Shown: positions 17,372 to 31,491, counted from the first letter of the stretch. The stretch is 64,000 bases of DNA from Candidatus Doudnabacteria bacterium (GCA_963840645.1 CAWIZL010000004.1:203470-267469), one strand, 5' to 3'. Translations and numbers: made by a program. Notes: generated by a model not told the origin, from the letters alone.

Positions 17372-18025
17372 TCATGGCAAATAATTCAGGGGGTTCAGCC
17401 ACCCGCTCAGGTCAGACTGGACTGGAACGTAGCCCAAAATGTTTATTGAGGTTCCAATGTGAATCCCGAAGTGGAGGTGCTTGCGCTCGCCATCTGTTTC
17501 AGTGCTGTAGCCAGTGCCGAGCACTGCAAACTGTTCGCCGGCCGTGAGCTGTGTACCTGTTGCAGGAGTTATGCTGCTCAACCTCAGGTGTCCATAGATT
17601 ATAGTCACAGCTTGGCTGTTGATAGTGCAGGCCTGTGCAGCAACTCCGCCGTAGCCACTCGCCCACTCTTTCAATAAAAGTTTGCCTGTGCACGCAGCGT
17701 AAATGGGGACGTCGGTGTTCTGCTCATCTGGGTACGTCTCAAAGTCTACGCCTGTATGGTAGCCCGTGAACCGCTCTGGCACTATCGGCGAGTCTGTGGG
17801 TGTGACGTACGTGCCAAAAAATATTTTTGTAACACGAGCCCTCCCGCCACTGATTGGATTGACCAGGACAGCTTGCGGATTTGGTGTGGGTGTTGGGGTA
17901 GGAGTAGCGGTTGGCGCAGCTACTGTTTTGGTTGGGCCTGGCCGCACAAAACTAACCAAGGCTGATGGGTTACACCCAACTGCAATTAAGCAAATTACTG
18001 CAACTAATGCTGCGAATCTTTTCAT
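17372..18025 (-). CDS. M23 family metallopeptidase lipoprotein
   Basis: Lipobox LIAVGC after MKRFAALVAVI. M23 motifs HTGVDFE and HLHFGIH. Confidence 0.85.
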   Translation of the reverse strand: MKRFAALVAVICLIAVGCNPSALVSFVRPGPTKTVAAPTATPTPTPTPNPQAVLVNPISGGRARVTKIFFGTYVTPTDSPIVPERFTGYHTGVDFETYPDEQNTDVPIYAACTGKLLLKEWASGYGGVAAQACTINSQAVTIIYGHLRLSSITPATGTQLTAGEQFAVLGTGYSTETDGERKHLHFGIHIGTSINILGYVPVQSDLSGWLNPLNYLP

Positions 18026-18126
18026 GGAACCACTATACCACCGCGGGTTTCAAAGGACAATTCAAACTCGCCCACTTTGACTATTTAAAGTATACTGAAG
18101 TTGGTAAAATTTCGAGAGGAGGCAAC

Positions 18127-18462
18127 GTGGAAATCGGAACTCTGGTTGCGGTATTCAACGAAGCAGAACTGGCTCCGAGTACATTTATCGGACTTGCCCG
18201 GTACGTCGGGGATGCTGTCATCTACTTCATCGTGACACCTGACAAGGAATACTTTGCCTGCCCAAACAGGGAAGCACGTCCGACTGAGGCGGTAGCTGAA
18301 CAGTTCCACGGCAAAATAGAAGTCTGGGAGAAACAGGCAAAGCTCTTTCTGCAAACTGGCGGCGTACGCTACGGCTGCGAAGTCTGCTACGTGGAGTACG
18401 CAGAAGTGAAACGGCTAGTTGACCCAGTCCTTCGGGCGCGAGAAAAGGTTCTGCATAACTAG
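18127..18462 (+). CDS. hypothetical protein
   Basis: GTG at 18127 follows GAGGAGG. 111 aa. A strong terminator follows. The long ORF 17965..18462 overlaps the M23 gene start and is probably over-extended. Confidence 0.5.
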   Translation: MEIGTLVAVFNEAELAPSTFIGLARYVGDAVIYFIVTPDKEYFACPNREARPTEAVAEQFHGKIEVWEKQAKLFLQTGGVRYGCEVCYVEYAEVKRLVDPVLRAREKVLHN

Positions 18463-18467
18463 AGCAA

Positions 18468-18500
18468 GTGGCCAGACGTACGTCTGGCCACTTTCATATT
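18468..18500 (+). terminator. rho-independent terminator
   Basis: Stem GTGGCCAGAC-GTAC-GTCTGGCCAC followed by TTTCATATT. Confidence 0.7.
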
Positions 18501-18513
18501 AAATAAATTTGGT

Positions 18514-18593
18514 TGGTAGCCGAACAGGATATTTATTTGAAAGACTTGGTACGGGAAATATACACTATACGGGAAAAGGTGGCAATTCTGTGA
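18514..18593 (+). repeat. att-like repeat copy 1 (core TGGTAGC + conserved arm encoding VAEQDIYLKDLVREIYTIREKVAIL*); distal island border
   Basis: Core at 18514..18520 is identical to 30073..30079. The arm is near-identical to copies at 21521, 23241 and 23897. Similarity starts exactly at the core. Confidence 0.85.
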
Positions 18594-18603
18594 CCTATGG
18601 ACA

Positions 18604-18642
18604 GAAAAAAATCAGGTAGACGCAGCAACGCTGGCTACCTGA
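18604..18642 (-). terminator. rho-independent terminator of the minus-strand module A operon
   Basis: Stem TCAGGTAG / CTACCTGA, followed on the minus strand by a T-run (A-run 18604..18611 on plus). Confidence 0.6.
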
Positions 18643-18671
18643 CTGACACGAAGTCAAAAAACATTGAGCGA

Positions 18672-19196
18672 TCATTTGCGTAAGTTTGGTCTCTGCTGTG
18701 GCTTAGGATTCAGTATTTCCCTCAGGTAGCCTTCCAGCTTTTTAAGCTCCTCGTCCTGGGAACCTTCCAGACCACGCGCGATGCTGAGCGTTAGCCTGAT
18801 CTGGGGAATAACCTGCTTCTTGGCGTACTCGTCACCCGTACCAGCCACGGCGGCCAGCACCTCGTAGGCGTAGCCAGAAACACCCTCATCTGGATCTTTG
18901 GTAAGCTTCACCAAAGAATCAACGATGACGGTAGTATCCTTGTACGGGGCTAGCTTTATTGCCCAGAAACCGATCAGCCCTGGCGAGTCAAACTTACGGC
19001 GATCTTGCAACGCTTCGGCTAAGATCGGGATAGCCTCCTGCCGATGTGATCGCACGAACTGAACCTCCTTATCCGTGACGCACAGACTGTCTATGCACAC
19101 AGCACTGATCAAACTCGAAACCTGATCCTTCTGATCAGCCTGCATGCAGGCCACAGAAAAAATCATGGACGCGAAAAACCTTCTCGACCGTTTCAT
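18672..19196 (-). CDS. lipoprotein with HEAT-like repeats
   Basis: The ATG at 19196 gives MKRSRRFFASMIFSVAC (lipobox FSVAC). AIPILAEALQD and VDSLVKLTKDPDEGVSGYAYEVLAAV resemble HEAT/PBS-lyase repeats. Confidence 0.6.
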   Translation of the reverse strand: MKRSRRFFASMIFSVACMQADQKDQVSSLISAVCIDSLCVTDKEVQFVRSHRQEAIPILAEALQDRRKFDSPGLIGFWAIKLAPYKDTTVIVDSLVKLTKDPDEGVSGYAYEVLAAVAGTGDEYAKKQVIPQIRLTLSIARGLEGSQDEELKKLEGYLREILNPKPQQRPNLRK

Positions 19197-19281
19197 ACAC
19201 AACCTCGATAACGGAAATATACACCGTTCGGTCAAAAGTGGCAACCTTGTTGGCGTAGGTTTCAGTCAAAACCAATGGGCA

Positions 19282-19584
19282 CTATTTCCACACGCTGCAA
19301 GCTATTCGTGCACACCGTCCGTAAGCCCCCCTCAAAGCAAAAAACAAGAATCCAATGAAGAGAGGGATTGACACCAATTTTTTAAAATCAGGGAACGTTA
19401 CCAAAAAACTAACTCCGATAGTTGAAAAGATGGTGGCAAAAATAACAGACACACTTGATTGCGATGTCCAATATTGCACTACGGGTGCTAAACTAGCACC
19501 AGGTGGTGCATCGTTTATGCCGTTCTCACCGACTATAAAAAGTGCAGCCTTGTCTAAACCCTTATACTTTTCTATCTGAGACAT
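19282..19584 (-). CDS. small two-TM membrane protein
   Basis: 100 aa with two hydrophobic helices. Its start overlaps the stop of the upstream HEPN-like gene by 23 nt. Confidence 0.5.
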   Translation of the reverse strand: MSQIEKYKGLDKAALFIVGENGINDAPPGASLAPVVQYWTSQSSVSVIFATIFSTIGVSFLVTFPDFKKLVSIPLFIGFLFFALRGAYGRCARIACSVWK

Positions 19585-19865
19585 TGGAGTGGTCTGGTTT
19601 ATTAACTGCTCTTAAGTAATCCATAAGTATTTTCTCTTTGGTAGCTCGGAGCAAAAGGTCTTTGCCTTCGTAAGCCAAAGCGTGAATCCTACCATGGCTA
19701 ATATCGTCTCTGATTTTCTTGAGCTTCCAAAGAATACCTGTCACATTGTTCTTTCCAGACATACCCTCGTATAGACGTATCTTATCGGTAAAGTATTCAA
19801 GATTATCAACTTGGCAGGTACCCATTTCTTCGGACGCCTTGTGCCTCTAGTGTAGCGTGTGTTGG

Positions 19866-20685
19866 TTAGTTTGTGAATACTGTTTGCCGCTGGGCGTAGA
19901 CGCTCGGCGGCATTTTCAGTGCGCTGTGGATGCGCTCGTTGTTGTAGTACAGGATCTGCAGGTGGAGGGCGACGGCCAGCTCGGCGAGGCTGCCAAACCG
20001 GTCTGGGTCGCCCAGGTCAACCTTGAACTGCGAGTAGAACGACTCCTGGTAGCCGTTCTCCCACGGGCTCGCCTTGCGGCTCATGGATACCTGGATGCCG
20101 CACTGCCCAGCAAACCTGGTGTAGGCCTTTGCCCGGTACTCGTTGCCCTGGTCTGAGTGGGTCAGTGCCGGTGCGTCGCGCTTGCCCAGGGCGTCGATGA
20201 GGGCCGTGACGGTCAGCTGCGCCGTGTGCGCGTTCAGCACGCTCCAGCCGACGACCTCGCGGCTCCACAGTGACCATGACGGTCGCCAGGTACACGAACC
20301 TGCCGTGGAACTTGAGGTACGTGAAGTCGGACACCCAGGCGATGCCGGCTCGTGCGGGGAACGGGATGGCGAGCAGCAGGTTCTGGTACGGCGCAGCGTC
20401 CCTGCCTGAATCACGAGCCTTTACCGGCCTCTTCGCCCTCCTGCGGAACGGCTTGATGCCGAAGAGCTTCATGACCCGCAGCGCGGACTTCCGGTTGACC
20501 CCCAGCTCCCGGGCGATCCGCTTGTGCCCGTAGCTCGGGTGGGCGTGGAGCACCCCCTCGATTCTGACCTTGAGCTGCCAGTCGCGCTCGGGCATCTTGG
20601 GGCGGTAGTACAGCATGGAGCGGGACAGCCCACCGCTCTCCGCGAGTGATTTCTTCGTCGGGTTGTGAAGGTGCACGGCGCTCAC
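19866..20685 (-). CDS. IS3 OrfB (DDE transposase), with an extra frameshift near 20280
   Basis: AWVSDFTYL (D), THSDQGNEY (D) and NERIHSAL (E region). Two overlapping ORFs, 20017..20685 and 19866..20414. Confidence 0.8.
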
Positions 20686-20689
20686 CAGC

Positions 20690-20959
20690 TCAGCGATCCA
20701 GCTCTTTTTTTTCCAGCTGCGACAGCCTGACCGTCAGCCTGCCGATGATCTCGTGGAGCGCCGAGTTCTCCCGCCTGAGCCTGGACAGCTCCAAGATCGA
20801 CGGCGGGGCGGTCACGTTCGAGGCGACCCACTTGTAGATCGTCTTCGGGCTGAGGCCGTACTGCTTCGCCAGGTCTGGCACGCTCTCGCCGCTCTCCTTC
20901 AGCTTACGCAGCACCTCAGACTTAATCTCTGGACTGGCGGCTGGTGTTCCCTTGGGCAT
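20690..20959 (-). CDS. IS3 OrfA (HTH transposase N-terminal protein)
   Basis: LAKQYGLSPKTIYKWV helix-turn-helix plus a leucine-zipper-like C-terminus. Ends at the A8 slippery run. Confidence 0.85.
   Translation of the reverse strand: MPKGTPAASPEIKSEVLRKLKESGESVPDLAKQYGLSPKTIYKWVASNVTAPPSILELSRLRRENSALHEIIGRLTVRLSQLEKKELDR
20704..20713 (-). promoter_or_regulatory. programmed -1 ribosomal frameshift site of IS3 (A-run)
   Basis: The minus strand reads CTGGAAAAAAAAGAG at the orfA end. The -1 frame continues KKSWIAELVSAVHLHNPTKK into OrfB. Confidence 0.6.
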
Positions 20960-21410
20960 ACGTTGGTTCTCCTTTCACCCAGTATACCGGAAGCGACAAG
21001 GTGTCTGATATTCGGGGTACCTGCCAACTCCCCGTTGCCTCTTTAGAAAATAATTCTTCTCTACAGCACTCCTTATTTCCACAGCGGTAGCTACAGGTAA
21101 GTCTTTCAGGATATCTTCGAGTGGCTTATTTGATTTTTTTCCACCGAATATAGATTCTTCCAATAATCTCTTTGCCTCGTCAATGGCTTCGTGCTCAGAC
21201 GTTTCGGTAGCTTTTTTCCAAGCAGCCTCCAACGAATCTCCCAGATCCTTCTCTGCCAGAAAACATAGCCAAAAAACAAAGGATAGCGTGTCGATCTGCT
21301 CATCAGTTAATTTCAAACTGCCCTTTGAAATCAGAGTAATTAATTTATCCTCAGAAATCTGGCTCATCCTTTCTTCAATGGCTTTTAAATTATACATGGT
21401 AAATAAACTA

Positions 21411-21520
21411 GATGAAATTATTTTTCAGCAAATCAGTAAGAACGGCCTGGACAACAGGCACGGCAACGGCATTGCCAAATTGCCGTACAGGGCTGTTGCC
21501 GAAAGACCTAGAAATGAAGT
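21411..21520 (-). pseudogene. 3' remnant of a C5 DNA cytosine methyltransferase (motif X only)
   Basis: The minus-strand frame reads NFISRSFGNSPVRQFGNAVAVPVVQAVLTDLLKNNFI*. QFGNAV.VP is C5-MTase motif X. Homology stops at the repeat core at 21521. Confidence 0.7.
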
Positions 21521-21606
21521 TGGTAGCCGAACAGGATATTTATTTGAAAGACTTGGTACGGGAAATATACAATATTAGGGCAAAGGTGGCAACTTTGGTC
21601 GTGTAA
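21521..21606 (+). repeat. att-like repeat copy 2 (core + arm encoding VAEQDIYLKDLVREIYNIRAKVATLVV*)
   Basis: Core TGGTAGC at 21521..21527. The arm aligns with copies 1, 3 and 4. The left flank is unrelated to the other copies. Confidence 0.85.
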
Positions 21607-21613
21607 ATTCTGG

Positions 21614-21654
21614 CATAAAAAAATAATAGGGTCGCCAGAATTAACTGACGACCC
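21614..21654 (-). terminator. rho-independent terminator of module B
   Basis: Stem GGGTCGCCAG / CTGACGACCC, then a T-run on the minus strand (ATAAAAAAATAATA on plus). Confidence 0.6.
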
Positions 21655-21746
21655 ATGAGAAACCACCGCCTACGGATGATCTATGGCATCGAGGCTTCGT
21701 AACATTTCCACGTCATTCTCGGCCTCAGCTTTTTTCCTGAGCTGCC

Positions 21747-21899
21747 TCAGAAAGTAAGCGATCCGTCGGAGCTGTAAGTGACTAAGGGCAAGCTGAGCCC
21801 CTCCACGCCACTGTTCGCCCTTGGCTCCAACAGCTGGTTGGCGAATCTGCCAAGAATCTCACCCAGAGATTCCAATAGTTCTGGTGCCTTTTTGAACAT
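21747..21899 (-). CDS. small hypothetical protein (50 aa; may extend to 21670 if frameshifted)
   Basis: ATG at 21899 is preceded by GAAGGAGGTGGGT. Not in the ORF track because it is under 60 aa. A second frame continues as RRIAYFLRQLRKKAEAENDVEMLRSLDAIDHP*. Confidence 0.45.
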   Translation of the reverse strand: MFKKAPELLESLGEILGRFANQLLEPRANSGVEGLSLPLVTYSSDGSLTF

Positions 21900-21916
21900 A
21901 CCCACCTCCTTCTATC

Positions 21917-22420
21917 TTACTTCGCGGTAACCCAAGGCTGGAGCAAAGTGCACTTGCCGATGGTGCTGTATAGCAGCTGGATTCCCGGCGTCCGCAGCTG
22001 CTCATCAACCTCATACTGTTTCCTTTCAGTAGAAGCTTTAGAACCGAGCTGCGTTTCGATCCACCGCTTCATCGCTGCGTCCAGGATCAGTGACGCCTTG
22101 CAAATTTCTGTGTTGCCAGCGTGCCCCCGCGCCACGGCGTTCGCGAAATTCTCGATGATGTCGAGCGACTGGTTACGGATGTTCGACTGGAGTGCCCGTT
22201 CGGCTTCGCCAGCGTCGGTAATGTAACGCTCTCGCCCATCCACTTCTCTTTTTTCAACAGTCCATCGGACGTTGATCAGCTCGACGATTTTCTTGTCGGC
22301 GAGCTGATCGTTGGCGAGCTTCGTTGCGGCTGCCAGACTGGCAGGCGTTGCGGTTTTCGTTTGCTGGGCGAACGACGTGCCCAGTACGAGCAAGGTAAAG
22401 GCGATGAGTTTCTGCGTCAT
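21917..22420 (-). CDS. secreted hypothetical protein
   Basis: MTQKLIAFTLLVLGTSFAQQ is signal-peptide-like. 167 aa. No recognised domain. Confidence 0.55.
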   Translation of the reverse strand: MTQKLIAFTLLVLGTSFAQQTKTATPASLAAATKLANDQLADKKIVELINVRWTVEKREVDGRERYITDAGEAERALQSNIRNQSLDIIENFANAVARGHAGNTEICKASLILDAAMKRWIETQLGSKASTERKQYEVDEQLRTPGIQLLYSTIGKCTLLQPWVTAK

Positions 22421-22539
22421 GGTCTTGCACACTCCACTTTCCCCTGGTTACTCCCAGAGAATCAAAGAGCCTACGGTGAAAGTAAGCACCTGGATACTCT
22501 GGAAGTAAACATATTTGAAAAATAAACCTCCTTTGTGCT

Positions 22540-22578
22540 CTCACCTCAACAAACCAGAGACTGGTTTATTGAGGTGAG
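22540..22578. terminator. long perfect hairpin, probable terminator after the 22674..23015 gene
   Basis: CTCACCTCAA-C-AAACCAG-AGA-CTGGTTT-A-TTGAGGTGAG. A T-rich tract follows on the minus strand. Confidence 0.55.
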
Positions 22579-22673
22579 TCCGCGACGTTGGTGCTGTCGC
22601 GGCAAGTGTGCGTGTACGCTATCGGCCGAAGGGGTCATCTGCGTAGAGTGCGAACGAGCGCAGGGTCTCCTGC

Positions 22674-23015
22674 TTAAACGCAATACTCGCAGGTGGACAG
22701 ACTGGCTGCATTCTCACATTGTCCGAAGAACCACGTGTGCGCCCCGCAGCGGCACGTGAGGCGGTACGCTGGTGTATTTGGAACTCCAGAGCGACTGAGC
22801 CCGCTCTGCAGCTCAACGCCACTTGCTGACCGGTAGCGGTCGAAGTACTCCAGTGAAGCATCGTGGCTGTGGTGCTCGGCGGCAAAGGCAGTGAAACCTT
22901 GAGCCTCACCAATTGATTCGAACTCGTGGTCTACGGAGATGCCTTTGTTCGGTTTGAACCGAACAGTCCATCCGATGAACGTGCCCGTGACAACCTGTTG
23001 CGTAGCGTTCGGCAT
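22674..23015 (-). CDS. hypothetical protein with C-terminal Cys-rich (zinc-ribbon-like) tail
   Basis: GAAGGAGAAAAGCAA precedes the ATG. The C-terminus reads CRCGAHTWFFGQCENAASLSTCEYC. An upstream TTGACA promoter carries the palindrome AGCAAATAGTTTGCT. Confidence 0.55.
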   Translation of the reverse strand: MPNATQQVVTGTFIGWTVRFKPNKGISVDHEFESIGEAQGFTAFAAEHHSHDASLEYFDRYRSASGVELQSGLSRSGVPNTPAYRLTCRCGAHTWFFGQCENAASLSTCEYCV

Positions 23016-23200
23016 TTGCTTTTCTCCTTCGGAATGTAGAAACCTCGCTATTGCTAGCTATCGAAAGAGTAGCAAACTATTTGCTTTTTGTCAACGGATA
23101 TTGCGCAATATAAATTCTGGTTTAGTACAAGATCCAACTTACGAGAACATTGCTTAAATAAAATTTCGAGCTGCTCCAGCTCACTCAATTCCCAAAACAA

Positions 23201-23326
23201 TACCAGACAGCTGATCCTCACTGCGTGAGGAACACCTGCCTGGTAGCCGAACAGGATCTTTATTTGAAAGACTTGGTACAGGAAATATACAATATTTGGG
23301 CTAATGTAGCAATCTTATCTGGGTAA
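23201..23326 (+). repeat. att-like repeat copy 3 (hairpin left arm + core + arm encoding VAEQDLYLKDLVQEIYNIWANVAILSG*)
   Basis: Core at 23241..23247. About 40 nt left of the core is shared only with copy 4 and contains nested inverted repeats (CCTCAC-TGC-GTGAGG). Confidence 0.85.
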
Positions 23327-23425
23327 AGAAAAGCTGCAGCTCCTGAGCAATAGAGCTTTTACTGCACCTGAGACAGTTGCCCGAAACTATCCTTTGTGAT
23401 AGTCTCCAGTTGAATTGGAGGATTA

Positions 23426-23765
23426 ATGCTTACACTTTCGCGAGTTCGTCGGGCGCTGCACCTTGAAGCATCGATACGAGATCCGCTGACAACAGCCTTG
23501 GGACTTATCCGAATGAGGGGGTTGGACTACATCGGTATCAATGTTCGCTCTTTGCCAACAGACAACAGGGTGGTCATCGCTCGCTACGCGACGGCTCTAC
23601 GCCAACGTTCCACTGGATCAGTTGCTCGCAGAGCCGATTCCAGACGACTTAATCGAACAGATCCGATCTTTGTTTCCAGAACGCGAATGCTGCGTAATCC
23701 CAATCGTAACAGCAGACGATTTGGAGAAAGAGAAACGCTGGTTCCAAAGCATGAACGCTGAATAG
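23426..23765 (+). CDS. hypothetical protein, probable frameshift near 23600
   Basis: GGAGGATTA precedes the ATG at 23426. The acidic C-terminal part (23541..23765, ...PLDQLLAEPIPDDLIEQIRSLF...) is in a second frame. A terminator follows. Confidence 0.4.
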
Positions 23766-23788
23766 CGAAAGTGAGCCGTAAAATATTA

Positions 23789-23827
23789 CCCCGCCTCTAT
23801 CCTTCAAGATTGGCGGGGTTCATTTTT
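23789..23827 (+). terminator. rho-independent terminator
   Basis: Stem CCCCGCC / GGCGGGG followed by TTCATTTTT. Confidence 0.6.
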
Positions 23828-23856
23828 AAAATTAGACAGCGAAGAAAAGATACCCG

Positions 23857-23976
23857 TACCAGGCAGCTGATCCTCACTGCGTGAGGAACACCTGCCTGGT
23901 AGCCGAACAGGATGTTTATTTGAAAGACTTGGTACGGGAAATATACAGTATTCGGGAAAAGGTGGCAACTTTTTGA
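23857..23976 (+). repeat. att-like repeat copy 4 (hairpin left arm + core + arm encoding VAEQDVYLKDLVREIYSIREKVATF*)
   Basis: Core at 23897..23903. The left arm is the same as in copy 3. Confidence 0.85.
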
Positions 23977-24058
23977 AGCTTAAATAGGGAATTCCGCCAG
24001 CTGTACAAAGCCATATTTTTATTCTATAATTTTTTATACAAATCCCACATCAAACACA

Positions 24059-25082
24059 ATGCCCAACCAACTACTGCTGAACAGAAACGAGGTCACGCAG
24101 GCCCTCTCCGCGGTGCTTGAAAATCCTGAAAAACTTTAAACCAAGCCACATCAATTTTTATTTTGATAGCTACTATGGCTCAGCTCTGCTGTCTAAGCTG
24201 TCGAACGTCTTTGCCTTACCGAATGAACAGGTAATAGTTGGCTACGGAATTGAGGATATACTGCGAACAATTTTTGATTCTCTGAGCAATGAAAGTGACA
24301 GCGTTCTAACCCACGAGCTGCACTACACCTACTACGACAAGTACCTGACTTTCAAGAAAATAAAAGTGGAGCTGTTCAAGTTGAGTGAGAGCACAACCTC
24401 TTTTGAGTTTGACATTGAAGACTGCCTCAACCAAATCAAGTTCGTGCATCCAAAAATTATTCTCGTTACATCTCCAAATAATCCAACAGGAAATTCGATC
24501 GCCGTCACTGACCTAAAAAAAATTTTGGCAGAGGCAGATAAGAGTAGCCTGGTCATTCTCGATGAAGCCTACTACGGTTTTGATTCAGTATACGACGAAA
24601 AGGGCATCCTATCTTTGCTCGGCGAGTACGATAACTTCGTTATCCTGAGAAGCTTCTCTAAGCTGTACGCGCTGGCTGGTATGAGGATAGGCTTCGCGCT
24701 CTGCGGCAAAAAGGTAAGGGAAATGATCGAGTACCAAGATCCGTATTTAGGCGGCAGCAGAATTTTGGAAGAGGTGGCAATCGCGGCACTCGAATCAAAG
24801 GAATACTACGCCAATCTTTCAAATGAAATCATCCAAGATAGAGAAAATTTTACAGCAGGGGTAAATAGCCTATCGCACTTCAAAGCCTACACCTCAAGAG
24901 CTAACTTTGTGCTGGTGAAAGTGTCCGACGAAGCCAAGCTGCTGATGGAAACAAAAATGGAGCAGCTAAATCCACTCATAGCAAAATTTGTCACAGGTAA
25001 CTACATGCGTCTGTCCATTGGAACAGAGCAGCACACTCAAAAATTTCTAGAAGTTCTGTCTGACGTAAACGGAGAGGTATGA
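24059..25082 (+). CDS. class I/II PLP-dependent aminotransferase (histidinol-phosphate aminotransferase-like), apparent frameshift near 24100
   Basis: SPNNPTG, DEAYYGF and RSFSKLYALAGMRIG (PLP lysine). The N-terminus MPNQLLLNRNEVTQ lies in another frame starting at 24059, downstream of TATAAT at 24024. Confidence 0.75.
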
Positions 25083-25713
25083 CAAAGGCAGTCTTGTTCG
25101 ACATGGATGGCCTCCTGGTGGACACAGAGAACGTAGATTTGAGTGTTGCGGTAAAAATCTGCCACGAGATGGGAATAGACCTGACTGACGAGGAGAAGGA
25201 GAGCCGCGTCGGCGTGGCTAGCAGAAAATTTTACAGCGGCTCTTTGAGAAGAGACGAGTTCATTTTGATCTAGAAGAAGTTTTGAGCAAGCACTTCAAGA
25301 TTTATGATGAGCTGCTAGAGGTTGGCCTGTGTCACTTTCCAGGAGCGAAATCTTTGCCAGCACTGTTAAAGTCACGAGGCTATAAATTAGGATTGGTATC
25401 AGGTAGTACCAGGAAGCAAGTTGAAACAATTCTATCACAGTTGGGTATAAAAAACTTCTTTGGTGTCATTATTGCAATAGAAGATGTTGCTCACGGAAAA
25501 CCTGATCCAGCTGCATACCTACTCGCTGCACAAAAATTGCAGGTCACCCCAGAAGAGTGTGTCGTTTTAGAAGATGCTCTCCCTGGCATCACAGCGGGCA
25601 AGAGAGCGGGTATGAAAGTAATTGGCGTTACCAATAATGGCGGCCAAGACCTATCACTAGCTGACTTGGTTGTTAACGGTTTGGACGAAGTTGAGATTGG
25701 AATGCTAACATAA
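25079..25713 (+). CDS. HAD-superfamily hydrolase (beta-phosphoglucomutase/phosphatase-like), apparent frameshift near 25245
   Basis: LFDMDGLLVDTE (motif I), SGSTRK, GKPDP and LEDALPGITAGKRAGM (motif IV). ORFs 25079..25273 + 25282..25713. Confidence 0.75.
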
Positions 25714-25717
25714 CTTT

Positions 25718-26476
25718 ATGAAAACGAAGATTTACGAAAGCTTGGCAAACCTATTTCCCCTGTGGAGAGAAACAATCCTCGGCAAGCAAGGGCACGAGAA
25801 GACAGAGGTAGATTTTGTCACCAGTGTATTGAACAAGTACCCATCTGAAATCAAGAGCGTGATTGACCTCGGCGGTGGGGTTGGACTGCACTCGCACCTG
25901 CTCAAAGAATCTGGCTACGATGTGACCTTGTTTGATAGGTCTGAAAAGGCACTGCAAATCGCAAAGGAAAATGATCCATCGCTCAAGGTGGTTCAAGGAA
26001 GCTTTGAGGACATAGGCGTTGCGGGTTCATTCGATGCGTCAATCTGCCTGTGGTCTACCCTGTCTTACGTCTACTCGGAAGACGGCAGGAAAAAATTCTA
26101 CGATTGGCAGAAAAATCATACGGGCAAGGTCATCATCCTAGACGAGGCAAACTTCTACCGATACTCTGAAAATTTCCACAAAGTTTATTTTGGCGAGGAC
26201 AGCAACCACATAATGAAAGTGGTTCGCGATTGGACGTTAACGAAAGATAACTTAAAAGAAACCAAGTTCACTTACGAAATCACCGATAAAAATACTGGCA
26301 GGACAGAGACTATCGAGGACGCAGAGAGCGAGCAATACGTGCCAGTGGAAAAGCTGGAAGAATACCTTGGGGCAGAATGGAAGCTACAGTACCTATGCGG
26401 AGATTACAATTTAAATTCTGCATTTGATAAGACAAACTCATCCAGAATTATCGCCGTATTCTTTAAGTACAGATAG
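25718..26476 (+). CDS. class I SAM-dependent methyltransferase
   Basis: Motif I VIDLGGGVGLHS followed by an acidic residue (LFDRS). Confidence 0.7.
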   Translation: MKTKIYESLANLFPLWRETILGKQGHEKTEVDFVTSVLNKYPSEIKSVIDLGGGVGLHSHLLKESGYDVTLFDRSEKALQIAKENDPSLKVVQGSFEDIGVAGSFDASICLWSTLSYVYSEDGRKKFYDWQKNHTGKVIILDEANFYRYSENFHKVYFGEDSNHIMKVVRDWTLTKDNLKETKFTYEITDKNTGRTETIEDAESEQYVPVEKLEEYLGAEWKLQYLCGDYNLNSAFDKTNSSRIIAVFFKYR

Positions 26477-26495
26477 TGCACCGCGCACACAGCCG

Positions 26496-26566
26496 TTGAC
26501 AAACTCACCCGCTGCGGCTTTTCATTAATGACCGCTTTTGACAAAACCACCCGCTGCGCGTATACT
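26496..26566 (+). promoter_or_regulatory. two 21-nt direct repeats (iteron/operator-like); the second forms a consensus promoter TTGACA-17-TATACT
   Basis: TTGACAAACTCACCCGCTGCG at 26496 and TTGACAAAACCACCCGCTGCG at 26538. TATACT at 26561..26566. Confidence 0.6.
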
Positions 26567-26573
26567 TCCATCA

Positions 26574-26856
26574 CAACTTAATAACTCAGCAAGAATCATC
26601 ACACGAGGGTAGGTGGTTTCCAGTCGCCACGGATGGGCGGCCTACCGATAACACATAAAGGAAACCTTCGCAGCCATTGCCAGGCTGCGCGATGTACGAA
26701 TGGGTGGGCGCCCAGTTATAAATAAGTCCCTTGCAGGCAAACCAAAACGAAAGGTTTTGAAATGCCTGCATTCAGCGTGCTGGTCTGTACCCAATACAGC
26801 CAGCTGACAAAGAAATACAGCCACGACACAACCCCAGTACCGCCTGGGGCTTTTTT
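26574..26856 (+). ncRNA. candidate structured non-coding RNA or single-strand origin (sso) of the adjacent RCR replicon
   Basis: No convincing ORF, but many complementary segments: GGTAGG/CCTACC, CGCC/GGCG, AAACCTTCG/CGAAAGGTTT, GCAGCC/GGCTGC, TGCAGGCA/TGCCTGCA and CTGG-CTGTA/TACAG-CCAG. Ends with CCCCAG-TACCGC-CTGGGG + T6. Confidence 0.4.
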
Positions 26857-27027
26857 ATCGCACCCTCACACTACTGGCTGCCCCCACGCCGATGGCTCGG
26901 CGAGAGGTGCGCCAGCACCGGGGGTGTCGCGGCGGGGATGGCGGCACGCCGCCAACCCGCCTGTGTTCTGCTCCCCGTTCCCGTCCCCTGTATCACTAGA
27001 TACTAGGTACACGTTAGGCGGAAACGT

Positions 27028-27897
27028 ATGAAGCTGACGAGCGTCAAAACCATCATCCTTGGCTCCAAGGTCAAGTTCCTGTACTTCGACACGCCCATCA
27101 GCTACGACTTCGAGAACATCGCGGCGCAGCAGAGAAAAAGCGGGAAAGAAATAATTACGATTGGAGACGACAGGGGCGACAGCATGGAGCTGTCTGCGCT
27201 CAAGGCCAGGTCACGGCTGAGGAACTTAGTCTGGTGCAACGCGTGGCAGTACAAGAAAGCAAACGGCAGCCTGTTTGTCCCTCAGTTCTCGACGTTCACC
27301 TTTGACCGCGACGTAGTGGACTTCGCCACGGGACACCCGCTGTACAACAACTTCATCAAGCGGCTCAACTATCAGTTCGATGAGAAGGTGCTCTGCATCA
27401 CGGTTCCTGAATTTCAGAAAGACACGGACTACCACGGCAAGGTCAAGGAGCTGGGCGGCAGGGTGCACTACCACGCCGTGTTCTTCAACCTGCCGTACCT
27501 GAAAAACCCTCATGCGTTTTTGAGCGACACGTGGGGCAACGGGTACGTGTTCAGTAAGTCAATCAACTCCGTGCAGCACCTCTCGCGCTACGTTACCAAG
27601 TACGTCCAGAAAGACCTAGAAAACAAGCACATCAAGTTCAAGAAGCGGTACTTAGTCTCGCGCGGCATCAAGCGGCCTGTCGAGATCTACGACCAGCAGT
27701 TCGCCGTTGACTTCGAGCGGTACATCTCCGCGCCAGGTATCCACACGACCAGAGAAAATGACTACGATTCCACTGACGGCAGGAAGATCCACGAGCTGGA
27801 GCTGACGTTCCCCGACGGATTCGATTTGTCGAGCCTCGTTGGTGAGACACCACAGGACACGCTGAGGCTCGCCCAGCAGATGGGAATCACCCCATGA
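27028..27897 (+). CDS. rolling-circle replication initiator (HUH endonuclease, phiX174 gpA / microvirus VP4-like)
   Basis: Motif 1 FSTFTF, HUH motif VHYHAVFF, and two-tyrosine motif YVTKYVQK. Confidence 0.8.
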   Translation: MKLTSVKTIILGSKVKFLYFDTPISYDFENIAAQQRKSGKEIITIGDDRGDSMELSALKARSRLRNLVWCNAWQYKKANGSLFVPQFSTFTFDRDVVDFATGHPLYNNFIKRLNYQFDEKVLCITVPEFQKDTDYHGKVKELGGRVHYHAVFFNLPYLKNPHAFLSDTWGNGYVFSKSINSVQHLSRYVTKYVQKDLENKHIKFKKRYLVSRGIKRPVEIYDQQFAVDFERYISAPGIHTTRENDYDSTDGRKIHELELTFPDGFDLSSLVGETPQDTLRLAQQMGITP

Positions 27898-28013
27898 CGG
27901 ACGAGGAGACACAAAACTTCCGCGACCTTCAGCAGGCTCTCGTCGAGCTCGCCTTTGCGTTTTGGCGCGAGGAAAAATTACAGCAGATGACGGAAAACAA
28001 AAAGGATGTATAA
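27894..28013 (+). CDS. small helical protein (39 aa) translationally coupled to rep
   Basis: ATGA overlap with the rep stop. Sequence MTDEETQNFRDLQQALVELAFAFWREEKLQQMTENKKDV. Below the ORF-track length cut-off. Confidence 0.4.
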   Translation: MTDEETQNFRDLQQALVELAFAFWREEKLQQMTENKKDV

Positions 28014-28038
28014 TACAACCATTCATTAAATATCTACC

Positions 28039-28584
28039 ATGTCCACCTTTACCATTCCATTTCCAGAGTACGACATCGCCAACATCCTCCAGAAAGAATT
28101 TGCCAAGAAGGATAGCTTTTCAGTTGCTATACCACTGAGCCGCCAGCAGAAATTCTACGACCTGCTTCTGGTGAATGGGCAGACCAAAAAATCTGTGACT
28201 ATCCAAGTAAAAAGTTCGAGGACATGGTTGGGATTAGGTAAACAAGAATACCAGCATTACTCTTGGCTCAACCACTTTGACATCAAGGACAACTACAGCG
28301 ATTTTTATTTCGTCTACATGACATATCCGTTGCTAGATAAAAATTTCCACCCTGGAGCAAAGTGGGACAGAAAAATACTCGTCTTCAATCAAAAGGAGAT
28401 GCTGGAACTTCTCGGTAACGTAAAAACAAAAGCAGGTAAACAGGGACGCTTCTTCGGCTTCGGATTCAACAATAGAGACAACGAGATATACAGCACCCTC
28501 GGCTTTTCGCATCTAGGTTTACAAAATTTTTCAAAAAATCTCCTCAAGAACAAGCTCGCCGAGATAAAAAAGAAGCTGGTTTAA
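28039..28584 (+). CDS. PD-(D/E)xK-like nuclease-fold protein (tentative)
   Basis: YDLLLV ... VTIQVKSS resembles a D...(E/Q)xK restriction-endonuclease-like core. AT-richer than the flanks. TGTATAAT promoter at 28006..28013. Confidence 0.4.
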   Translation: MSTFTIPFPEYDIANILQKEFAKKDSFSVAIPLSRQQKFYDLLLVNGQTKKSVTIQVKSSRTWLGLGKQEYQHYSWLNHFDIKDNYSDFYFVYMTYPLLDKNFHPGAKWDRKILVFNQKEMLELLGNVKTKAGKQGRFFGFGFNNRDNEIYSTLGFSHLGLQNFSKNLLKNKLAEIKKKLV

Positions 28585-28592
28585 AAACTGCT

Positions 28593-30113
28593 ATGGAACA
28601 ACCACACGGCGTCATCTACTATCGCGTCTCGACCACAGAGCAGGCGGAGCACGGCTTCAGCCTGGAGAACCAGCGGGAGACGTGCCTGCGGTACGCCGAG
28701 CACCACGGCATCAAAATCGTCAAGCTGTTCTCCGACGACGGCGTGTCGGCCAAGACCGCCGACAGGGACGGGCTGCAGGCCATGCTGTCGTTCTGTGGCG
28801 ACAGGTCAAATAGCGTCAGCGTCGCCATCATCTACAAGGTGGACAGGCTGTCGCGCAACGTGCACGACTACGGAGGCATCGTCATGCTGCTCAGGAAGCA
28901 CGGCGTGCGGCTCGTCTCGGCCACGGAAGCCATTGATGAGACCCCGTTCGGCGTGGCCGTGGGCAACATCATGATAACGTTCTCCGAGTTTGACAACGCC
29001 GTGCGCAAGGAGCGCACCAAGGCGGGCATGGTGCAGTGCCTCAACTCTGGCAGGTTTCCGCACAGGGTAAAGATTGGCTACCTGAACGTGGTTGACCCGC
29101 ATGGAAACAAAAAAATAATTCTTGACCCAGAGCGTGCAGCTACGATTAAAAATATTCTCCAAGAGTTCTCGAAGGGCATCTACTTCCAAGAGGAGCTGCG
29201 GCAAAGGTTCAATGCCCAAGGCTTTCTCACGCGCGAGGGAAATCCCCTGTCCTTCCAGATGATGAACAAGATTCTGACGAGCAAGTTCTACTGCGGCACA
29301 ATGACCGTGAGTGGCATTGAGTACCAGGGCAGCCACGAGCCGCTGATTTCTGAAACAATCTTTCACAAGAACCAACAGCTACTGAGAAAGAAATCTACTG
29401 CGCCATCGCTGAGCACCACGTCTGAGTTTGCGCTCAGGAACTACGTCATCTGCGGCGACTGCTCGCGGCCGCTGACGGCTGGATTTTCAATTGGGCAGAA
29501 CGGCGGCAGGTATCCGTACTACCGCTGCTACAACCCAAAGTGCCCGTCACGAAAATCATACGCAAAGGGAAAGCTGGAGGCAGCATTCATAAAGCTGCTC
29601 CGAAGCGTTACCCCGACAGAGGAAAACATTGCCTCACTCAAAGAGGTCATCGTGAACCACTGGAACAAGCAGTACAAGAACCTGAACAAGAAAAATGAAC
29701 GGTTAGAGAAGCAGCTCGTTGAGCTTCAAGCTGAAAAGGCTCAGATCTTCAACATGGGCAAGAAGCAGCTCATCTCTGATGAAGACTTCAAGGAAGCGTT
29801 CGATACCGTAAAACAAAAAATAGCCGATTGCCAGCTTGCTCTCGCAGGAACGACGATTGAAGACTTTAACGTGAACGAGGCAGTAGACTTCGTGTTCGCC
29901 TTCGTGCGGCGCATTCCAGAGTACTGGGAGAAAGCTGACTACGCCAAGCGTGTAAAATTGCAGGGTTTGATTTTCGCCAAAAATCCCATCTTCCAAAAAA
30001 CAGAGTTTGCAACCCCAGTTCTGACCAATGTTTTCAAGGCAAAAGAGTTCATTTGCAATCAAAATTCAACGATGGTAGCGCTACGGGGAATCGAACCCCG
30101 ATTTAGTGGATGA
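28593..30113 (+). CDS. large serine recombinase (integrase); 3' end runs into the complement of tRNA-Glu
   Basis: Resolvase catalytic domain YYRVSTTEQ ... DRLSRN, a recombinase domain, zinc ribbon CGDC...C..PKC, and a coiled-coil region. The final residues VALRGIEPRFSG are encoded by tRNA antisense sequence. Confidence 0.9.
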   Translation: MEQPHGVIYYRVSTTEQAEHGFSLENQRETCLRYAEHHGIKIVKLFSDDGVSAKTADRDGLQAMLSFCGDRSNSVSVAIIYKVDRLSRNVHDYGGIVMLLRKHGVRLVSATEAIDETPFGVAVGNIMITFSEFDNAVRKERTKAGMVQCLNSGRFPHRVKIGYLNVVDPHGNKKIILDPERAATIKNILQEFSKGIYFQEELRQRFNAQGFLTREGNPLSFQMMNKILTSKFYCGTMTVSGIEYQGSHEPLISETIFHKNQQLLRKKSTAPSLSTTSEFALRNYVICGDCSRPLTAGFSIGQNGGRYPYYRCYNPKCPSRKSYAKGKLEAAFIKLLRSVTPTEENIASLKEVIVNHWNKQYKNLNKKNERLEKQLVELQAEKAQIFNMGKKQLISDEDFKEAFDTVKQKIADCQLALAGTTIEDFNVNEAVDFVFAFVRRIPEYWEKADYAKRVKLQGLIFAKNPIFQKTEFATPVLTNVFKAKEFICNQNSTMVALRGIEPRFSG

Positions 30114-30147
30114 GAACCACTTGTCCTAACCGTTAGACGATAGCGCC
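30073..30147 (-). tRNA. tRNA-Glu (anticodon CUC)
   Basis: Manual cloverleaf: acceptor GGCGCTA/TAGCGCT (G1-U72), D stem GTCT/GGAC, anticodon stem AGTGG/CCACT with loop TTCTCAT, T arm CGGGG-TTCGATT-CCCCG, encoded ACCA. Confidence 0.85.
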
Positions 30148-30213
30148 ATGATGGGTTCAGGGAGCATTGTAACAGAAATAGCTGCTGTAGACAAGCGAAC
30201 GGAGAACAAAAAA

Positions 30214-31491
30214 CTAGCTCTTCAGCCACTTGCCATACTGCCTGCACACCAACCACGCAGCCTGATCCGGATGCTGCATCACGGCAACAACAATCTTCTC
30301 CATGCGCGTACCTTGCGAACCTTTCACCAAAATCACGGTGCCAGGTTTGGCAAGCTCCCTGACCTTTTCAATTGCACCAGACGACTTTGCAAAGTGGAGA
30401 ATTCTGCCAGCTGGAAAACCGCCGCGCACAGCCGCATCAACAGCAATCCGCATGCGCTCCCCAACAGCCACAAAGTAGCCATCTTTCAAGTGCTCTACAA
30501 TGTACTCGCCCACTTCTGCGTGTGCAGCATCAGACAGTGGCCCAAGCTCGAGCATGTCACCGAGCACCGCAACCTTTTGCCCAAGAGGAAACTCTGCGAG
30601 CTCTTCAAGTGCTGCACGTGTAGATAGCGGCGCAGCGTTGTACGTGTCGTCTAAAACAATAGATCCGCGCACGCCGCCAAGCACGGTCAGCCTGCCCGGC
30701 TGCGCATGGTAAGACTGGACAGATTGAGCAGCACCGTCAAATGCAATTCCAGCTGCAATTCCAGCTGCAACACCTGCTGCGCACGCGTACACGTGTGGGG
30801 TACCAACAACGTTTGGCAGGCAAACCTCGCGCACAGCACCCGCGTGCTCTAACTGAAAAATGGTGCCGTAAACTTTTTTCTCTTCTAGGTAGGCTGTCCT
30901 TGGGTGTGCAATTCGCACGTCAGAACCAGCAGCTGTTCCGTACGTCACGCACCTGCCATGGAAATTTGGCACCAGGCTCGCCACGTTTGCATCATCTAAA
31001 TTTAGAACCGCAACGTTCCGCTCCCCAAAGTGTTTAAAAATTTTCGCCTTTTCTTTTAAAATCTGCTGCTCATCTTTGAAGTACTCTAGGTGCGACACGC
31101 CAACAGTCGTGAGCACGGCAACATCCGGGCTCACAATTTCCATGAGCCTATCCATGTCTCCAGGCCTATCAATGCCGAGCTCGAGCACGAGAGCCTCTGG
31201 GTAATCGCGCTGCGCACTCTGCGCCAAAAACCCTTTCCAAAAAACACCCAGCCACTTAAAAATATTTCTGCCTGGAGCCTCAACGCCAATGACCGTGAAT
31301 GGCAAGCCAAACTCATTGTTGTAGTTGCGAACGTTCGTGCGCGTGGCGTACCTTCCAGATAGCACCGCAAAAATAGCTTCCTTTGCGGAGCTCTTGCCAA
31401 TGCTGCCTGTCACGGCAACCACCATTGGCCTGTGCTGCTCTAAAATTTTCTTCGACGTAGCTGCGAGCCTGCTCTGTATGGTTTCCTTCAT
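30214..31491 (-). CDS. murF: UDP-N-acetylmuramoyl-tripeptide--D-alanyl-D-alanine ligase
   Basis: Mur ligase P-loop AVTGSIGKSSAKE, NNEFGLP and DDTYNA. Located at the end of the dcw block. Confidence 0.85.
   Translation of the reverse strand: MKETIQSRLAATSKKILEQHRPMVVAVTGSIGKSSAKEAIFAVLSGRYATRTNVRNYNNEFGLPFTVIGVEAPGRNIFKWLGVFWKGFLAQSAQRDYPEALVLELGIDRPGDMDRLMEIVSPDVAVLTTVGVSHLEYFKDEQQILKEKAKIFKHFGERNVAVLNLDDANVASLVPNFHGRCVTYGTAAGSDVRIAHPRTAYLEEKKVYGTIFQLEHAGAVREVCLPNVVGTPHVYACAAGVAAGIAAGIAFDGAAQSVQSYHAQPGRLTVLGGVRGSIVLDDTYNAAPLSTRAALEELAEFPLGQKVAVLGDMLELGPLSDAAHAEVGEYIVEHLKDGYFVAVGERMRIAVDAAVRGGFPAGRILHFAKSSGAIEKVRELAKPGTVILVKGSQGTRMEKIVVAVMQHPDQAAWLVCRQYGKWLKS

Follow-up and report, generated by a model that had tools for sequence, protein, structure and literature searches.

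The subject of this study is a large serine recombinase gene and the tRNA gene into which it runs, both located in a 64,000-nt stretch of DNA from Candidatus Doudnabacteria bacterium (GCA_963840645.1 CAWIZL010000004.1:203470-267469), which is referred to below as the window and in which all positions are counted from the first nucleotide. The recombinase gene (28593..30113, plus strand), identified by its open reading frame (ORF), its translation and Pfam matches, encodes a protein of 506 aa, treated here as the integrated isoform. Its final 41 nt are the antisense of an intact tRNA-Glu(CUC) gene on the minus strand (30073..30147; found by ARAGORN, and by Rfam as a tRNA with 62 bits), which forms the B' side of the junction (attR in the usual notation for attachment, or att, sites). 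The C-terminal 12-13 residues of the protein read MVALRGIEPRFSG, and the stop codon TGA sits in the anticodon loop of the tRNA. This overlap had been claimed in an earlier, sequence-only reading of the stretch, and the ORF translation and the ARAGORN prediction agree with it. At the junction itself lies the heptamer TGGTAGC (30073..30079), the antisense of the discriminator A, the CCA end and the last three bases of the acceptor stem, and the segment immediately before it (30028..30072, plus strand), within the 3' coding end of the recombinase, is the putative P half-site, as suggested by the reconstruction of attP and by the known layout of serine-integrase sites (PMC3783163).

The protein belongs to the large serine integrases. 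Pfam identifies in it the Resolvase (PF00239, E=1e-32, residues 7-148), Recombinase (PF07508) and Zn_ribbon_recom (PF13408) domains; in an alignment of 32 homologs R11, V12, S13 and Q17, including the catalytic Ser, are invariant, and the zinc-ribbon residues C287, C290, C312 and C317 are conserved. An AlphaFold2 (AF2) model of the homolog P0016 has a mean predicted local distance difference test score (pLDDT) of 87 and exhibits long coiled-coil helices at residues 347-394 and 400-424, while Foldseek returned full-length matches to the integrases of SPbeta, Bxb1, phiC31 and LI (E=1e-21 to 1e-12). The exact sequence of the window recombinase is on record on a public contig of 523,761 nt. In the Logan sample ERR11571140 an identical recombinase was found together with the 181-aa ORF upstream of it on a contig of 2,164 nt, which ends at the recombinase stop codon, inside the tRNA.

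The heptamer recurs, as the sequence-only reading had noticed, at 18514, 21521, 23241 and 23897, where it heads four copies of a common arm measuring 72-80 nt. All four lie on the plus strand, were delineated by repeat comparison and translation, and comprise the core followed by a P' arm: arm 1 (18514..18593), the outermost, 11,559 bp from the tRNA, reads LVAEQDIYLKDLVREIYTIREKVAIL and then a stop; arm 2 (21521..21606) reads LVAEQDIYLKDLVREIYNIRAKVATLVV and a stop; arm 3 (23241..23326) reads LVAEQDLYLKDLVQEIYNIWANVAILSG and a stop; and arm 4 (23897..23976), which marks the near border of the 6,176-bp unit carrying the recombinase, reads LVAEQDVYLKDLVREIYSIREKVATF and a stop. They are mutually 88-95% identical across 72-80 nt, and their similarity begins exactly at the heptamer, while their left flanks are of three unrelated kinds. 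TGGTAGC by itself is not rare in the window (13 copies against 6.5 expected), as opposed to a 26-mer from within the arm (four copies against 0 expected); chance recurrence of the heptamer was nonetheless rejected, because the onset of arm similarity coincides with it beside three unrelated left flanks.

Read in the phase xTG GTA GCx, each of the four arms runs uninterrupted for 26-28 codons up to a stop (at 18593, 21606, 23326 and 23976, respectively), so that the earlier statement that each keeps the frame of the recombinase before stopping holds good on translation. The consensus tail is LVAEQD[ILV]YLKDLV[RQ]EIY...stop, with a variable codon that is ATT, ATT, CTT and GTT in arms 1-4, respectively, and the protein obtained by joining the recombinase to an arm reads ...CNQNSTMVAEQDIYLKDLVREIYTIREKVAIL followed by a stop. 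The outermost arm had been chosen previously as the partner of the recombinase; it does join in frame, but it is not uniquely the best, as the nearest arm (23897) is equally good. A search for the repeat family also revealed a degenerate fifth arm (19204..19257, plus strand), of which only the distal half is present, 74% identical and, by hand translation, in frame (..SITEIYTVRSKVATLLA and a stop). We considered whether the arm could be a structured RNA and rejected this idea, since Rfam gave no hit on the arms and an ORF is conserved instead; a scan of 17500-31000 found the tRNA alone, and a mir-16 match at 21587-21665 was dismissed as below threshold.

Using the reconstructed joined protein as a query, we found 309 relatives, of which the few named ones belong to Patescibacteria (Woesebacteria, Falkowbacteria, Paceibacterota), as the host genome, to judge by these names, probably does as well. 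The loci were picked by similarity to the window enzyme, and the frequencies given below thus describe its clade only. Among the best 120 of the 309, 107 have C-terminal tails that are tRNA T-arm antisense (..[LVM]V[APV].RGIEP..), four have amphipathic tails of the arm type and nine are truncated or otherwise different. ARAGORN places an antisense tRNA across the recombinase stop codon in 44 of the 85 scorable fetched loci (Glu in 28, His in 6, Ala in 4, Asn and Leu in 2 each, Arg and Ser in 1 each), and many of the remaining scorable loci have tRNA-like tails at contig ends. Among the matches listed, tRNA read-through extends to relatives of 26-30% identity in Myxococcales, Eisenbacteria, Flavobacterium and Nanosyncoccus. 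A single-protein query of the genome contig collection gave no match, the matches listed for an alignment-based query were mostly distant recombinases, and the curated phage and plasmid collections contained no close relative (best below 32% identity). Serine integrases that target tRNA genes and have their own tail across the insertion site apparently constitute a large and hitherto undescribed clade, in which this arrangement is the rule and not the exception. About 90% of the deposited sequences of the clade (P0001-P0120) terminate in 8-13 tRNA-antisense residues (..RGIEPLLPG); the native C-terminus is absent from most of its database entries and from the alignments based on them.

Homologs with no adjacent tRNA are the place where a contiguous native tail might be expected, and arm-type tails were indeed found in several of them (for example P0016, P0044, P0091, P0102 and the loci L088, L089 and L179), one of which sits on a circular contig. 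The latter, P0016 (locus L001), resides on a contig of 10,823 nt that has no tRNA and whose ends overlap by 30 nt, as left by an assembler with k=31 when the molecule is a circle. Its recombinase ends in ..ANSSIVDYCIENLHPLVLDIKKWAIGIKVLTQTSF, including ..SSIVDYCIENLHPLVLDIKKW.., and the free tail is predicted to be a helix (residues 498-525, AF2). A motif (S/N/E)WN(S/T/P) is present in the tails of P0091, P0102, L179 and the two viral contigs L088 and L089, the last two of which read ..LVD..SWN... The most informative comparison is that of P0016 with the integrated recombinase of L168: the two proteins are 72% identical over residues 6-499 and their similarity ends exactly at the core, beyond which L168 continues with APTGFEPVLPH, the antisense of tRNA-Glu. 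The far border of the L168 island, 11.4 kb upstream, reads LVDHCIQNLNPIIQDIQKW.., a homolog of the P0016 tail.

The split geometry recurs in at least 11 independent islands, found in bacteria of the candidate phyla radiation, in Myxococcales and in Saccharibacteria. The closest relative of the window element (L004/L005, 67% identity) has the same module of replication protein (Rep) and recombinase, reads 41 nt into tRNA-Glu(UUC), and at its far border, 4,467 bp upstream, presents a terminator-like flank and then TGGTAGC followed by VVADRGEFLKNLVGEIERF, with an in-frame tail VVADRGEFLKNLVGEIERFSEVFSAL that is homologous to the tail of the window. Equivalent far-border junctions were located by core matching in L008, L009 (Myxococcales) and L012 (Saccharibacteria). 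A small tail profile, run on all stop-to-stop fragments of all loci (score >=12; members of its training set match by construction), gave 21 matches on the recombinase strand versus one on the opposite strand, and far-border arms outside the training set emerged in L168, L170, L182, L188, L192 and L011. The in-frame relation recurs in homologous islands (L004/L005, L008, L009, L011, L012, L168, L170, L182, L188 and L192); on the other side, the arm did not turn up in the absence of such a recombinase, with 0 exact matches among metagenome and viral contigs and the profile distributed 21 to 1 by strand. The supposition that the native 3' end is parked at the far border of the integrated element is supported by the P0016/L168 pair and by the tails in at least 11 other islands. 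Left flanks consisting of a hairpin and a T-run, comparable to that of the outermost junction in the window, occur in L004, L008, L012 and L168. In Nanosyncoccus the left flank and core (aacaagttctctctttttcaatttc-TGGCGGA) are duplicated 88 bp apart (L012:5372 and 5460), with a tail-type arm after the second copy only. In Flavobacterium ajazii (L038:4780-4999) a 125-nt remnant of the 3' end of a second recombinase is fused to a free-type tail at the far border, an internal attP-like junction that indicates tandem insertion at tRNA-Leu.

We regard it as very probable that the recombinase gene spans its own attP, that the partner site is a tRNA gene and that this is a property of the whole family; the comparative data (107 of 120 homologs and the P0016/L168 pair) support the earlier proposal that the attP core lies inside the 3' end of the gene and that integration replaces the last ~25 residues. 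Translated from the free circle, the ORF would be ...CNQNSTM-VAEQD(I/L/V)YLKDLVREIY...stop, giving a protein of ~519 aa with the heptamer at about codons 494-496. The circular junction would read CAAAATTCAACGA-TGGTAGC-CGAACAGGAT, or in a longer form ...GCAATCAAAATTCAACGA-TGGTAGC-CGAACAGGAT[ACG]TTTATTTGAAAGAC, while the empty site would be the tRNA-Glu gene's 3' end, ...CCCCGTAGCGCTACCA, followed by ACCAAATTTATTTAATATGAAAGTGGCC. The end of the tRNA gene would serve as the partner site, and because the heptamer is the antisense of GCT-A-CCA, the tRNA would be kept intact on insertion. Insertion would strand a conserved amphipathic C-terminal helix of ~25 residues at the far border as an arm, and the integrated ORF reads instead 41 nt of tRNA antisense (ALRGIEPRFSG) as far as a stop in the anticodon loop. 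On excision the long form would be restored. The C-terminus encoded in the free state necessarily differs from that encoded in the integrated state.

The two kinds of junction partners also offer a clue to how the site may be recognized. With columns counted from an alignment on the first tail codon, 13 of 16 arms have GAA(C/A) at column 27, embedded in A(A/G)TTGGAAC (the window version being TATTTGAAAG), and on 9 of 10 tRNA sides the GAAC of the T-loop falls at column 22. The T-loop-like motif of the arm (TTGGAAC; TTTGAAA in the window) is thus 5 bp farther from the core than the T-loop of the tRNA. In known serine integrases the zinc-ribbon motif of attB lies 5 bp nearer the centre than that of attP (PMC3783163), and this shift is matched here for the P' and B' halves only. 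From these alignments we infer that the recombinases of the clade may read the tRNA T-loop (TTCGAAC) as the zinc-ribbon motif of attB and that the arm may mimic the T-loop, which would also account for the passage of relatives from one tRNA species to another.

The interval from arm 4 to the tRNA (23897-30072; 6,176 bp), in which every gene lies on the plus strand, is a small (6.2 kb) integrative element at the 3' end of tRNA-Glu(CUC). According to Pfam its cargo comprises an aminotransferase (24117-25082), a HAD hydrolase in two frames, an N-terminal ORF of 64 aa and an ORF of 143 aa (25079-25273 and 25282-25713), and an S-adenosylmethionine methyltransferase (25718-26476). The splitting of the hydrolase (25079-25713) could reflect a frameshift, a pseudogene or a sequencing error. 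These genes are followed by a rolling-circle-type replication protein (27028..27897; PF23343 REP_ORF2-G2P) and by the 181-aa ORF (28039..28584) mentioned above, a protein of unknown function with no Pfam match, which is paired with the recombinase also on the second contig. In L004, L005, L166 and L008 the recombinase has the same Rep as its neighbour, and the two form a conserved module. The GC content within the element is mosaic, 54-56% in the Rep region (26500-28000) and 40-47% in the cargo (24000-26500).

On the side distal to the tRNA, several att-derived direct repeats, namely the four arms and the degenerate one, bound unrelated segments: A (18514-21520), B (21521-23240, 1,720 bp) and C (23241-23896, 656 bp), which have only the arm at the left end in common. 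The arm-bearing left ends of B and C share 72 nt at 92% identity, and their last 40 nt are 97.5% identical. The latter are a 40-nt hairpin that abuts arm 3 (23201..23240), with a right stem that finishes in ..CTGCC and extends its pairing to the core's TGGTA, and its second copy, recognized as a repeat, that abuts arm 4 (23857..23896); a 28-mer of the hairpin has two exact copies in the window. The left flank of the outermost junction (18474..18513, the B arm) is different in sequence, a GC-rich hairpin and then an AT-rich run. Segment A contains an IS3-type transposase on the minus strand (19866..20959), recognized by Pfam and composition, with a helix-turn-helix orfA and a frameshifted rve orfB; its GC content of 63-65% within the ~47% of the segment suggests that it is probably a later insertion. 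In segment B a minus-strand ORF (21917-22432) encodes an orphan protein with a signal-peptide-like sequence, for which the databases contain, apart from the protein itself, a single relative, a 74% identical paralog located on the same 523,761-nt contig outside the window. Promoter-like hexamers were observed in every arm (18537-18585, 21544-21592, 23264-23312 and 23920-23968, and in the degenerate arm at 19216-19244, minus strand): a minus-strand site TTGCCA-17-TATATT is directed outward across the core, and a plus-strand site TTGAAA-18-TACAAT is directed into the element. The arms hold 10 of the 15 promoter-like sites of the region 18300-24200, against 4.3 expected for that region, and the plus-strand site of arm 4 is well positioned to drive the entire row of plus-strand genes through the recombinase.

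The exchange of tails may also affect the enzyme. The pattern L-[IV]-x-E-I-x-x-[WY], at codons 12-19 of the tail and 34-57 nt from the core, is kept across phyla with different codons; the free tail is thus conserved as protein well beyond the DNA half-site, which makes a function probable on this ground, although, taking all considerations into account, we judge the chances about even that the tail is functional and that the free and integrated enzymes differ in activity. We put forward only tentatively, and consider rather unlikely, the further step that the swap sets the direction of recombination as a directionality or commitment switch. In such a switch the long isoform, made from the free circle only, would carry a helix that is needed for attP x attB integration or restricts the enzyme to it, while the tRNA-tailed isoform, the sole product of the resident element, would be either competent for excision with no separate directionality factor or inert until rescued; recombination would thus rewrite its own enzyme. 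The same geometry could also be functionally neutral, if attP merely overlaps the end of a gene in a compact element, the last ~25 residues are dispensable and the isoforms act alike, and we give this somewhat less than an even chance, as we do its corollary that the arm is conserved as a P' half-site with promoters. A number of observations speak for neutrality and weigh against a role for the tail. The four arms of the window vary at 4/4/6 sites by codon position, with nt 1-54 almost invariant (4 of 54 variable) and no excess at third positions, a pattern without a coding signature, so that conservation within the window could be purely at the DNA level; the best-kept residues of the tail, Trp-Asn, coincide with the motif TGGAAC, which may be conserved as DNA, as protein or as both, and the two constraints are inseparable there as identical bases encode both; promoter-like hexamers lie on both arm strands; the last 28 residues of the SPbeta integrase are disordered in cryo-electron microscopy maps; and in the majority of the database members the tRNA-tailed form is intact. 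Other observations weigh against the split-gene reading as a whole: the predicted tail helix of P0016 is of moderate confidence (pLDDT 62-80); among the sequences compared, no contiguous free form belongs to the lineage of the window (VAEQD/VADRG tails), and the nearest enzymes with a contiguous tail are ~46% identical; a 38-nt arm pattern with one N, sought exactly in metagenome and viral contig collections, gave 0 matches; and dyad symmetry of attP was not clearly detected, 15 reconstructed sites having a weak maximum at column 5.0 (0.32 versus a background of ~0.26), with similar peaks at 9.0 and 11.5. Neutrality, on the other hand, does not easily accommodate a tail pattern that reaches past the ~25-bp half-site of serine integrases and persists with different codons across phyla, a frame that no arm or free form interrupts for 25-38 codons, or the effect of the extreme C-terminus of SprA on directionality.

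The array of arms calls for an explanation of its own. The previously proposed single integration accounts for the geometry, but not for the four arms, which are unique to the window. Our preferred reading, at about even odds, is that they document successive insertions next to the tRNA, each of which moved the older units farther out. Accretion of this kind is feasible, since there are few constraints on the chromosome-side half-site: with a crossover at the very end of the tRNA, that half-site is arbitrary downstream sequence, which must be tolerated; and insertion beside the junction of an older element does occur, as in L038. Against accretion stands the absence of a recombinase remnant to the left of internal arms 2-4, as simple tandem insertion would leave one, as it did in L038; we conjecture that such precise junctions could have arisen if the recombinase carried out a deletion between an internal attP-like junction and a secondary site bearing TGGTA, such as the hairpin. 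The main alternative to repeated insertion is a cassette-like array, in which B and C would not be decayed leftovers, but units with no recombinase of their own that are moved in trans, in the manner of satellites or integron cassettes. It would agree with the similarity of B and C in their ends only (72 nt at 92%, 40 nt at 97.5%), with a hairpin palindrome that extends into TGGTA, whereby a circle of B or C would carry a 112-nt unit of hairpin, core and arm, with a minus-strand promoter-like site in the arm that points into the minus-strand ORFs of the preceding segment, and with the presence, at another place in this genome, of a 74% paralog of the segment B protein. We nevertheless find it improbable, as none of the other loci examined has more than one arm within a 10 kb flank, the hairpin has, on visual comparison, no evident similarity to the recombinase-side P arm that a dimer of the integrase would need to bind, the end of segment A differs, and no independent copies of B or C were found. 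Far less credible still is the notion that the arms are primarily a repeated regulatory element, i.e. a bidirectional promoter or operator, whose link to the tRNA heptamer and to the recombinase frame is coincidental: the concentration of promoter-like sites in the arms and the retention of the promoter part by the degenerate arm (19204-19257) would fit it, but the similarity of the arms starts exactly at the tRNA-end heptamer beside unrelated left flanks, homologous in-frame tails mark the far borders in 11 or more further islands and also terminate contiguous free genes, and the arm of L004 has, on visual reading, no clear promoter hexamers. As a sole explanation it is contradicted by the profile matches and the P0016/L168 pair, while a promoter role can coexist with a role as an att site.

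The split-gene integrases can be compared with several known systems. They resemble the large serine integrases of phages and integrative and conjugative elements (phiC31, Bxb1, A118/LI and SPbeta SprA) in domain architecture, fold, short att sites and the 5-bp shift of the motif, but differ from the integrases of phiC31, Bxb1, A118 and SPbeta in that attP is located inside the 3' coding end of the integrase gene itself and integration is aimed at a tRNA gene, at its 3' end. These features have a parallel in the SSV-type integrases (SSV1, pTN3, pT26-2), which also have the recombination site inside the integrase gene and a tRNA target, and which were called 'suicidal' and exclusive to archaea in a 2021 review (PMC8371274). 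Those enzymes, however, are tyrosine recombinases (Phage_integr_3) that are broken into two inactive fragments, whereas here Pfam finds serine-recombinase domains only, and a bacterial enzyme loses ~25 of ~519 codons, keeps all three domains and gains a tail encoded by the tRNA. In mycobacteriophages BPs and Brujita attP is inside the repressor gene, and the exchange of the C-terminus acts as a switch (PMC3694055). This integration-dependent immunity likewise places attP in a coding sequence, with free and integrated proteins that differ at the C-terminus; there, in contrast, it is the repressor that is split, recombination is carried out by a tyrosine integrase and what is lost is a degradation tag, whereas here the integrase itself is split. 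In SprA the last residues influence the direction of recombination, according to 2021 work as cited in PMC11722253; there the C-terminal element is always present and is complemented by a separate directionality factor, while here it is removed by integration and restored by excision. Large serine integrases need a directionality factor for excision, and no candidate for one was identified here.

With respect to the array, the nearest precedent is that of tycheposons, tRNA-seeded islands that, like accreted cis-mobilizable elements, grow by successive integrations: each newcomer inserts beside the tRNA and displaces the older elements away from it, with att-derived repeats and remnants staying behind (10.1101/2020.12.28.424599), and the arms of the window fit such accretion islands. 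Tycheposons, in contrast, employ tyrosine recombinases and are marked by partial copies of the tRNA, while here the mark left behind is the recombinase gene's stranded 3' end, with no remnants of the recombinase at the internal junctions. According to a recent review, no serine integrase is known that has a tRNA gene as its target, and a large study devoted to the discovery of serine integrases nowhere mentions tRNA. In the searchable open-access literature we found no description of a serine integrase gene that spans its attP or overlaps a tRNA gene, which agrees with the earlier remark that no description of gene-partitioning integration by large serine recombinases was known to its author.

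Serine integrases are major tools of genome engineering, and the choice between integration and excision is an active structural question. The clade described here provides a natural experiment, in which the recombination event itself exchanges the extreme C-terminus of the enzyme, i.e. the region implicated in the directionality of SprA. The statements that targets within the integrase's own gene are exclusive to archaea and that tRNA genes are not known as targets of serine integrases would need to be widened. Finally, if the T-loop (TTCGAAC) is the host-side motif, the target would be present in nearly all tRNA genes, which would explain the spread of these integrases across phyla and may be of practical use.

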